This document shows, in pieces, positions 33,801 through 36,800 of a DNA stretch of 39,549 bases; position 1 is the stretch's first letter; every line of letters starts with the position of its first letter. The stretch lies in IMG/VR virus record IMGVR_UViG_2526164633_000032, positions 1 through 39,549 of that record; one strand, given 5' to 3'. This DNA is from a virus. Lineage: Duplodnaviria > Heunggongvirae > Uroviricota > Caudoviricetes. The position numbers were made by a program.

Positions 33801-36800
33801 CGCTGACTCAATCGTGGGTAACAGCAATCAGGGAGGCCGCCACCACAGGAAAAATCACACCGGCAATTGCGGATGTCGTAAACGACGGCTCTAAATTTAT
33901 GGATGCCTATAAAATGGATGCGGTGCAGTTGCCATCAGCCTATGGGCAACTCAGCTATCGCATGACCTACAACCTGGTATCAATGTTTACCGACCTTGCC
34001 ATCCTTGGGCTGGTGGACCTTAACGAGGTTACGCCGGAATTGCTCAGCATGCGCAAGAATCATGTGGAGATATTGCACAGAATTAACACGGTACTTGCCG
34101 GGCGCACCGATGAAGAGAAACAGGCAGACGCTGATCGGATAAACCTGGCCCTTGGCAACATCACGGAGGAAGAAATTGCCGCCAGAAACGAGAAACAAGA
34201 AGAGTTATCATCAATACAGGGTGATGCCACCAGCATAGCTCAGTCTCTTGGTCTGAATTATCGCGTATCCACCGCCGACCTGAAGATGATGTACGCACCA
34301 AAATTCGCCGCTGGCGAGGTATTTGGGCTTCAGGAAGCCTCCGGCATGAAAGGGGTTCTTTTCCGCGCGAAAGACGCAATCAAGGCGAAATTCGGCGCTC
34401 GCTGGTTGCCAGCGAAGGCGAAGAACAGCGACTTCCCAGGTAACTGGTGGATTATCGAGACAAAACACAACGTGGCGGACGTTCTGGCCGTCATCCAACA
34501 ATACGCATAACAGGAGCGCCCGGTTCGCCGGGCGTCGCATAATATGGCCACACTATCTGATACAATAAAACCGAATAAAACATATCTTGAGGCGGTACTC
34601 CGTACAGCGTTGTTAGGAAAGACAGAAGACGAATACGTTGATTTCTTCCTGTCAGGGCTACGCGGGCGATTACTGAAAAATCCCCGCCTGTACCGCAGCT
34701 ATGGTCCATACTGGCCGGAAATTAAAAAATTATTACTGGAGCGCGGTTATGGTAATTTCGGTCGTCTCGTTGACCGTGACGTTCGCAAAATTTACCGTTA
34801 TGACCGCCCGGCGCTAACACTCATAGCCGCGACGCTCTACAGCCAGGAGCGTTTTGATAATGGTCAGATATACTCAGCCTGGCATTTACTGCCAGTGCCT
34901 GAAGAAGTTGACGACCAGGACTATGAGTTTGAGTCTTACGATTTGGAAGTTGAAGCCTTGGCACAGGCTGGAGAGAAAACTTGAAAAAGCGATACTACAC
35001 AGTAAAGCATGGGACGCTACGAGCATTACAAGAGTTTGCTGACAAGCATAACGTTGAGGTGCGCAGGGAAGGGGGAAGTAAAGCTCTGCGCATGTACCGT
35101 CCGGACGGGAAATGGCGTACAGTCGTCGATTTCAAAACAAACAGTGTTCCCCAGGGCGTCCGCGACCGGGCATTCGAAGAATGGGAGCAGATCATCATAG
35201 ATAATGCATTGCTTCTCAATGCTGATTGAGTTTTGTTGGCCCGGTTTGCACCGGGCGTTTCACAAACAATCAACTGGTTTGTAGTTCCTGCGGCGAGATG
35301 AATTATTAATATTATCGTGGTGCCGATGATGCGATAGCCTGTATGATGTTATCAATATCGTTATCGTTCAGCATGAATATAGGTACACCATTAGAGTTTG
35401 CATTTTTTTCAGTGCTCATCAAACAAAGCCCCTCATACATGCCGCGAGTTTTTTTGAAATTGGCGACTGATGGAGTGGTGTAATTTCCTTTAAAGTGCAT
35501 TCCGGCTGATTCATAAAAAGGAACCAAATCAGACTGGCAAATCAAAGCGACCTCATTTGGAAATGCAAGTATTTCTGCCAGTATATTACTTCCAAGTCCA
35601 TTACCACGATATTGCTCATATACATATATTTTATGACAGTACAACGGAAAATTTCCCGATGGATGTCCGAAGATTAAGGCGTATCCGAACAAGTTTTCTT
35701 CATTAGTAAAGCCCATAATGCGCAAATGACCGGCTCGGTAACACTCTTCAAAAACGTTAATTATGTAGCTTCTCGCTGCTTTCAGCTCCTCTTCTGTCGG
35801 GAACATCATCAACCCCATAAGCGATGGAGTATAGGCCAGATCCTGAAGAATCCCATTAGCTTCATTTTCGAAAATTAGCGGTAAGTGCGGAACAATTTCA
35901 TTTGCCGAGGTATTAGACATAGTATGGTGAGTCCTTTGTTTTCAAAGGACTCATGTTATCAGTGATAATCGTTTGTTGTAATAGTGTTGATAAAATAATT
36001 TTCTATTATGTAAGCAAGCTCATTTTTATGACGGGTAATGCAAAAAAAATAGAATCAAAAAACTAAAAAATAATAACTCATGGGGTTTTACACCATCAAA
36101 AGTCCCCACTATAAATTATTAGAAATAATTATGCTTGCCTGTTAATACCCCTTTCGGCACTTTTTTTGTTCCAGTGTCTGGGTACCCAGAATTATGTTAA
36201 TAAGTGGACTTAGTAACGATGGTTCCTGGCGGGCTTCAACTTCTCCAGCCATTGCCCTGATGTAGTCGGCGCTGGCAACGTTGTTGTATTCCGTCGCAAA
36301 GCAACATAGTAACGTCAGAACATGCTCTGTCGTTATTTCGCTCCAGTTGATGTTGAAAAATTCATCGCCTTTTTTATCGTGTTCGGAATCGAAGATGCTT
36401 TGGTGAAGGATGTATTTGCCGGATTCCTTGCGCGGTAACTTGATCGCTTTCTGGCGTTCCAATTCCTTGTAAATCTGCATTGCTTCAATCAGTACCGGTC
36501 TGCCGTTCATGAAGGGATCACGCAACCTTACACGCTGGCCAACTCGACCGGTAATAAAGCTGTTTTCCTCTTCCACCAGCACGATAAAACCCTTTTCCTC
36601 TTTTTCTCGCAATTCGCGCAGCAGCTGGAGTTCCATATCGCGGCGGCGTTCAGGGTAGCTGGTCCGCTCAGCCATTATCAGCTCATTGTTGATCCATGCA
36701 GCAGTCATTGACGCCGGTTTGCCGACGCTCATTGAAACAACGCATATTTTCTTATCCATAGCGCCCCTACAAAAAAGAAAAGCCACCAGCGGCGGCTTAG

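Follow-up and report, generated by a model that had tools for sequence, protein, structure and literature searches.

Within the 39,549-nt window analyzed here (the whole of IMG/VR virus record IMGVR_UViG_2526164633_000032), a solitary gene for a GNAT-family N-acetyltransferase is preceded by a perfect 11-bp hairpin. The 3' arm of this hairpin contains the only Shine-Dalgarno (SD) sequence of the gene, and its 5' arm overlaps a promoter-like motif that is invariant among divergent relatives. We tentatively favor the reading that the hairpin is an RNA fold-back that would bury the GNAT SD only in transcripts begun upstream of the gene's own promoter. According to this proposal the GNAT gene is an autonomous cargo module that brings its own extended -10 promoter (TGATAACAT); RNA initiated there, at about position 35946, would lack a complete 5' arm and leave the SD free, and read-through RNA from the upstream mat gene would carry both arms, fold the 11-bp stem and be poorly translated. 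The net result would be that GNAT synthesis is uncoupled from lytic and late transcription of the phage and left to its own promoter, with the hairpin shielding the gene against foreign transcription. Judged from the sequence, a function of the hairpin as a switch on the gene's own mRNA is unlikely. The elements concerned are the following:

35312..35920, minus strand: solitary gene for a GNAT-family N-acetyltransferase of 202 aa, at the P1 res/mod site.
35918..35920, minus strand: ATG start codon of the GNAT gene, at a conserved N-terminus with mostly synonymous changes; also the start in the 9S30 construct.
35928..35953, minus strand: hairpin, given in the mRNA sense as 5' arm 35953..35943 (UGAGUCCUUUG), loop 35942..35939 (AAAA) and 3' arm 35938..35928 (CAAAGGACUCA).
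35932..35936, minus strand: SD sequence AAGGA within the 3' arm, the sole SD-like motif before the ATG.
35953..35961, minus strand: predicted extended -10 element TGATAACAT, with TG at 35961-35960 and the hexamer TAACAT at 35958..35953; putative promoter.
35946 (+/-2 nt), minus strand: predicted +1 of the GNAT promoter, the 7th nt after the hexamer by canonical sigma-70 geometry, inside the 5' arm.

Position and stability of the leader hairpin

The inverted repeat consists of two arms of 11 nt each, at 35928-35938 (TGAGTCCTTTG) and 35943-35953 (CAAAGGACTCA), which are 100% complementary and separated by 4 nt; along the coding strand the leader therefore reads UGAGUCCUUUG-AAAA-CAAAGGACUCA-CCAUACU-AUG. 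The first-pass annotation of this DNA had reported a perfect 11-bp stem before the GNAT ATG with the only nearby AAGGA inside it, and both observations hold, AAGGA lying at 35936..35932. Its measurements were each one too long: the loop, given as 5 nt, is 4 nt (AAAA in the mRNA sense), and the distance from the stem to the ATG, given as 8 bp, is 7 nt (35921-35927). The ATG is the true start of the gene, as the crystallized 9S30 protein begins at the same Met after its tag. Spacing between the SD and the ATG is 11 nt in the window, versus 8 nt (7 nt in L039) in the other aligned relatives that bear the promoter-like motif.

Folding of the leader in silico, which had been suggested as a check, readily gave the stem. 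The hairpin by itself folds as RNA with -15.5 kcal/mol; the 86-nt leader fold has z = -4.2 relative to dinucleotide shuffles, none of 200 of which folded as well, and the 11-bp stem is still present in a 236-nt fold. In RNA holding both arms, the SD is paired with a probability of about 1.00. When the whole window was shuffled by a first-order Markov model, a perfect stem of at least 11 bp with a loop of 3-8 nt appeared anywhere in 3.3% of 300 shuffles. The window contains only two other perfect hairpins of at least 10 bp, at 11310-11335 (ATAACCCCGGCAGCCGCCGGGGTTATTTTT) and 8142-8165 (AAATCCCGCCGATTGGCGGGATTTTTTT), in which GC-rich stems are followed by T-runs, the pattern of canonical intrinsic terminators.

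A stable intergenic stem-loop of this kind might be thought to act as a transcription terminator or attenuator, as an RNA thermometer or as a hairpin that stabilizes the 5' end of the message, but its features make these functions highly improbable. No T-run was found after the GNAT-leader stem on either strand, unlike at the two terminator hairpins, and a terminator pattern scan was also negative there. The perfect stem, at -15.5 kcal/mol and with no mismatches or G-U pairs, is too stable for melting at 37-42 C, and the geometry of the -10 element disagrees with a start at the stem base, as a 5' stabilizer would require. The Rfam 15 covariance models, run over 35700-36300, gave two chance-level snoRNA matches (E = 5.5 and 8), neither overlapping the hairpin, which thus has no match among curated RNA families. 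Like generic SD-sequestering leader hairpins such as thermometers and attenuator-type switches, the GNAT hairpin holds the SD in its 3' arm a few nucleotides before the AUG; unlike them, it has no anti-anti-SD alternative, ligand fold, leader peptide or mismatch-weakened stem.

The putative extended -10 motif and the predicted transcription start

Fifteen distinct and divergent GNAT leaders, from P1-like plasmids, an IncFII plasmid, chromosomal islands and phage contigs, were aligned. TGnTAAnAT is the sole invariant block in these leaders besides the ATG, occurring in the forms TGaTAACAT, TGcTAACAT, TGcTAATAT, TGtTAACAT and TGtTAATAT; the same pattern is found at the same position as TGCTAACAT in L051 and as TGGTATGAT in L052. 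The distance between the end of the motif and the start codon is always 27-34 nt. Read as a sigma-70 extended -10 element, the motif is invariant at the TG and at -12, -11, -8 and -7, and it varies at -13 and -9, together with -10 in L052. These variable positions are the least informative and least constrained in an extended -10. The motif is not coding, because no open reading frame (ORF) is conserved across it; a 95-aa ORF does span the L006 leader but is conserved at no other locus. We infer that TGnTAAnAT is the extended -10 promoter of the GNAT gene itself. It resembles the extended -10 promoters of phage 'moron' genes gained horizontally in having TGnTAAYAT without a recognizable -35 and a 5' untranslated region (UTR) of about 26 nt, and the GNAT gene is itself a solitary gene carried in many mobile elements; the likeness is one of promoter, not of hairpin, and concerns a predicted activity.

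In the window, the last T of the hexamer TAACAT (35953) is also the first base of the 5' arm of the hairpin. Because the predicted +1 falls inside this arm, mRNA from the gene's own promoter should be unable to form the stem. RNA taken from the predicted +1 retains at most 4 of the 11 stem nucleotides (UUUG) and folds at -1.9 kcal/mol, and the probability that the SD is unpaired is 0.23 in this RNA versus 0.00 in the -120 leader. The proposal in the first-pass annotation that the hairpin exerts translational control through RNA structure thus stands in part: the SD is occluded in silico in the longer leader, but such control probably does not operate on the gene's own mRNA. A transcript starting downstream of the hairpin had been named as the finding that would speak against the proposal, and for the gene's own promoter this probably applies, with the predicted +1 near 35946 within the 5' arm.

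Several other promoter-like or operator-like sequences lie in the same region. A plus-strand match, TTCAAA-17-GATAAT at 35941-35969, overlaps the hairpin and is directed away from the GNAT gene. Its -35 falls within the loop and arm of the hairpin, and its -10 is complementary to the ATTATC directly upstream of the GNAT -10. As judged by eye the plus-strand -10 is unconserved in relatives, and the site was taken as a chance match; if active, it would produce RNA antisense to the spacer and mat. A small palindrome on the minus strand, TTATCA-C-TGATAA at 35953-35967, covers the TG together with bases one to four of the -10 hexamer. The P1-like plasmids of lineage B described below retain it in part (CTATCGCTGATAA), C-type leaders lack it, and by eye it has no convincing Fur or LexA match. 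The sequence TTATCACTGATAA was likewise compared by eye with Fur and LexA boxes, and the match was poor.

SD accessibility among GNAT leaders and competing explanations

SD accessibility was computed for all leaders in RNA of read-through length, from -120 to +35, and was calibrated by shuffling the upstream sequence. Three leader types only were found to hide the SD beyond what shuffles achieve:

Window lineage: 11-bp hairpin; 0/150 shuffles reach the observed value.
Lineage B (L001/L002): CUCCUUC (7 nt, about -33..-27) pairs with the SD GAAGGAG; -16 kcal/mol, z = -3.4; 1/150 shuffles.
L031: the GGGAG region is paired with CCCUCCCUG, a segment that overlaps the -10 at its TG; z = -2.8; 2/150 shuffles.

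One GNAT family therefore contains three unrelated anti-SD solutions, namely an 11-bp hairpin, a 7-nt long-range anti-SD and a 9-bp anti-SD that overlaps the -10. Each of the three has its sequestering segment either ahead of the predicted start or spanning it, and in each the GNAT gene is situated 77-221 nt behind a co-directional gene (77 nt in L031; 147 nt in lineage B, behind mat; 221 nt in the window). The eleven other motif-bearing leaders fall at the 0.25-0.99 quantile of their shuffles (0.97 for L051, 0.63 for L052), meaning that their SD is as open as expected by chance or more so. In nine of them, the closest gene call on the upstream side is either divergent or separated by over 300 nt; the other two, L006 and L024, are without gene calls, and an uncalled ORF of L006 terminates about 280 nt upstream. 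Distant, motif-less leaders from Pseudomonas and Aeromonas also gave no significant SD hiding; in the Pseudomonas homologues, SD pairing that appeared suggestive in a 123-nt fold was no better than in shuffles when placed in a 155-nt context. One of the distant homologues, in L054 (P. aeruginosa plasmid p4782_002), is located 88 nt behind a co-directional gene, and its SD (UGGAG) is adjoined and in part taken in by a 13-bp GC-rich hairpin (CCAGCUGCGCCGG-CGAU-CCGGUUGCAGCUGG) at about 1440-1490; SD hiding there did not reach significance relative to shuffles.

The comparison bears on the suggestion, made in the first-pass annotation, that the palindrome is an operator at which a dimeric repressor would block initiation. 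Its placement agrees with this suggestion, since the perfect 26-bp palindrome spans -7 to +19 of the predicted promoter and overlaps the -10 and +1, a classic operator position. Other properties of the site do not. The 39.5-kb window has no second copy of the palindrome and no pair of half-sites, a search for these yielding one half-site with 1 mismatch versus 0.57 expected by chance, and beyond this locus IMG/VR contains no instance of the palindrome. The adjacent genes include no regulator, and the palindrome is missing in relatives with the same protein and promoter, which implies that the GNAT protein itself is not the binder. There is also no match to the P1 C1 operator or to the late-promoter box: by eye, neither the C1 operator nor the -22 box (AAGTGACTT in LPmat, 4 nt before the -10) has a counterpart in 35921-36000. 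The elements of lineage B and L031 are inverted repeats in which the SD forms one arm and about 33 and 26 nt separate the arms, an arrangement that suits RNA pairing, not an operator. That three unrelated inverted repeats share only the SD as an arm favors, at the level of sequence comparison, occlusion of the SD in RNA over a DNA operator, because an operator would not be expected to fall on the SD each time. The operator explanation, which keeps its overlap with the predicted core promoter and lacks copies, an adjacent regulator and conservation, is in our judgment decidedly unlikely.

The distribution of the hairpin among relatives is narrow. Leaders identical or nearly identical to that of the window (lineage A) are present on four IMG/VR contigs and on about 20 P1-like plasmids, whose hosts are E. 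coli, E. fergusonii and Salmonella. Within this lineage the 221-nt spacer diverges by up to 4.5%, with zero changes across the 26-nt hairpin, and the sole change adjoining it, 35927 C>T, is present in three records and gives a stem of 12 bp. Both the non-random nature of the stem and its extension by the only adjacent substitution support the fold-back reading. In lineage B (L001 and L002; P1-like plasmids, 85% protein identity), the GNAT gene is also located behind mat, and the leader is without the hairpin and contains indels in both arms. The more distant relatives, at 54-76% protein identity, are solitary genes on an IncFII Klebsiella plasmid and on Citrobacter and Raoultella plasmids, and are also present in chromosomal islands (Serratia, Enterobacter, Raoultella) and phage-like contigs. 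The hairpin was sought in the 85% variants and in all of these more distant relatives and was absent. The structure is thus not conserved across homologous leaders: the stem is invariant in lineage A, and elsewhere there is functional convergence only, in two lineages.

A hairpin limited to one shallow clade could also have no selected function, having arisen by template-switch 'correction' of an older quasi-palindrome, CTTTG-AAAA-CAAAG, and been tolerated since it would be absent from the gene's own mRNA. Relatives indeed hold a weak core of 3-5 bp (CUUUG...CGAAG in C-type leaders, CUU...AAG in lineage B), lineage A has coordinated indels in both arms (TC and CTC) that are the signature of a templated event, and the stem is composed entirely of Watson-Crick pairs, with no G-U pairs. 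Template switching would not, however, be expected to produce the strong SD pairing that lineage B and L031 gained by non-palindromic long-range complements, and the sole substitution near the stem lengthens it instead of eroding it. For these reasons we consider a purely neutral origin unlikely.

Upstream transcription, precedents and the GNAT locus

In the fold-back reading, the likely source of read-through RNA is mat, which is located upstream of the GNAT gene on the same strand and is separated from it by the 221-nt spacer:

36142..36786, minus strand: mat (maturation control), ~96% identical to P1/P7 mat and co-directional with the GNAT gene.
36057..36121, minus strand: candidate weak terminator after mat, consisting of an AU-rich imperfect hairpin (36121..36071) followed by U6-AG-U6 (36070..36057).

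The P1 annotation gives mat two promoters, the late LPmat and the C1-controlled Pmat, and it is from this annotation that read-through into the GNAT leader is assumed. The candidate terminator has a dG of -13.6 kcal/mol with a z of only -1.0, no better than shuffles, and was missed by the pattern scan; together, this terminator and the hairpin would form a two-layered layout. At position 36077 the window has G, versus A in 10/10 compared relatives, which changes a U-A pair to a U-G pair in the candidate terminator.

If the true start of the GNAT transcript were instead upstream of the hairpin, through, for example, a lineage-specific promoter in the spacer or co-transcription with mat, the stem would act as a constitutive damper that keeps translation permanently low. 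The SD is fully occluded in every RNA with both arms, as such damping would have it; the 11-nt SD-ATG spacer is suboptimal, consistent with low expression being tolerated or favored; a CATAAT hexamer is present in this lineage about 90 nt upstream of the ATG; and the GNAT gene is dispensable, being frameshifted in L046 and interrupted by ISApl1-mcr-1 in pHYEC7-mcr1. Constitutive damping nevertheless leaves unexplained the invariant extended -10 at a fixed distance in all contexts, and it does not account for why none of the three anti-SDs is confined to the short 5' UTR, all of them preceding or spanning the predicted +1. In addition, no candidate passed a minus-strand promoter scan from the candidate terminator to the hairpin, and the sole match in the spacer, a promoter-like site at 36099..36070, was rejected as it sits within the hairpin of the candidate terminator. 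On balance a permanently damped message is improbable.

A number of findings count against the fold-back reading and keep our preference for it tentative. The promoter was called from conservation and consensus, with a hexamer match of 4/6 and without a -35, and the extended -10 scored below the threshold of the promoter scan. Since divergence within lineage A is at most 4.5%, the unchanged 26 nt are weak evidence and covariation is uninformative; the hairpin is lineage-specific, and a perfect palindrome can arise unselected, in one step, by templated (quasi-palindrome) mutation. The candidate terminator between mat and the hairpin could already limit read-through. Finally, the link between SD hiding and close co-directional upstream genes comprises three lineages, and its distance cut-off was set once the data had been seen.

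Occlusion of the SD in read-through RNA is itself a known mechanism, from insertion sequences. In IS10 and IS50, an inverted repeat is placed with its 3' arm over the translation start signals and its 5' arm ahead of, or spanning, the point where the element's own transcript starts, such that only externally initiated RNA folds and the mobile gene is insulated from external promoters. This fold-back inhibition of the IS10 (Tn10) and IS50 (Tn5) transposases is said to have been described by Davis, Simons and Kleckner in Cell in 1985 and by Krebs and Reznikoff in J Mol Biol in 1986, and reportedly is also named in the 1998 review by Mahillon and Chandler in MMBR. The GNAT leader is alike in that its 3' arm covers the SD and the co-directional mat gene is upstream; a transcription start within the 5' arm, as predicted here, would complete the likeness. 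It differs in that the protected gene would be a phage-plasmid GNAT cargo gene rather than a transposase, the external transcription would be the mat and late transcription of the phage, the structure is a compact 11-bp perfect hairpin, and the case is known here in silico only. At the left end of IS200, a terminator acts against transcription impinging on tnpA and an SD-sequestering stem-loop is present in the 5' UTR (PMC4513863). The window is similar in having the candidate terminator at 36121..36057 and then an SD-sequestering stem-loop just before the start codon; the IS200 stem-loop, however, is inside the gene's own mRNA and represses constitutively, whereas here the predicted start falls inside the 5' arm and the terminator is weak and uncertain.

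The three anti-SD solutions in one GNAT family raise the broader idea that cargo ('moron') genes in phage and plasmid operons repeatedly evolve an anti-SD upstream of their own start as a translational firewall, a generalization that is possible but that we hold to be doubtful. If general, such a firewall would amount to a predictable design rule for insulating acquired genes in mobile elements and would extend a mechanism documented so far for insertion sequence transposases. The three independent solutions provide a small testable case of acquired genes being insulated from new neighbors.

The GNAT protein is identical over all 202 residues (100%) to chain A of PDB 9S30, deposited as 'GNAT family N-acetyltransferase'. 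A literature search found no functional paper for 9S30 or WP_000072647, and searches for its function returned no PADLOC match, a PHROG family of unknown function and no NCBIfam equivalog. With a predicted promoter of its own and a probable firewall, the protein is likely made in the plasmid-prophage state and not by late lytic transcription, and this expression timing would be useful for work on GNAT function; the structure is already solved. The gene is dispensable for plasmid maintenance, because it is interrupted in one plasmid and frameshifted in another. In pHYEC7-mcr1 (L004, NZ_KX518745.1, 1940-3286), an ISApl1-mcr-1 unit is inserted in the GNAT gene, and the hairpin, the leader and the N-terminal part of the coding sequence are kept; in pZ1323PEC0009-2 (L046, NZ_CP148287.1), a 1-nt deletion at the equivalent of window position 35839 causes the frameshift.

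The window as a whole has the gene content of a P1-type phage-plasmid (cre, c8/cra-like, ref and mat, with darB-, ulx- and lxc-like genes). The minus strand holds, besides the GNAT gene, a c8/cra-like ORF, ref, mat and the following gene, and the plus-strand darB-, ulx- and lxc-like genes converge on them:

38116-39147, minus strand: cre.

DNA similarity to P1, P7, SJ46 and RCS47 includes mat and ends between 36114 and 36247. In P1, res and mod come next after mat, and in the window the solitary GNAT gene occupies that place. The res-mod site is a hypervariable region in P1-like phage-plasmids (PMC9603915); it swaps defense-type cargo and is also a place of ISApl1-mcr-1 insertion. The darB-like region of the window consists of two plus-strand ORFs, 26024-28996 (990 aa) and 29033-34510 (1825 aa); in the close relative L003 this region is annotated as a single 2255-aa 'N-6 DNA methylase', and the arrangement in the window is unlike that of P1 DarB. 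A short motif, (T)GGCAGG / ACAGGC, is present at the mat stop codon in the window (~36135-36142) and recurs in L006/L029 and L009-L012 at about -90 relative to the ATG, on the upstream margin of the GNAT leader. The latter are enterobacterial C-type and Pseudomonas loci. The motif, which by eye is no match for a sigma-54 promoter, may delimit a mobile GNAT module on its 5' side.

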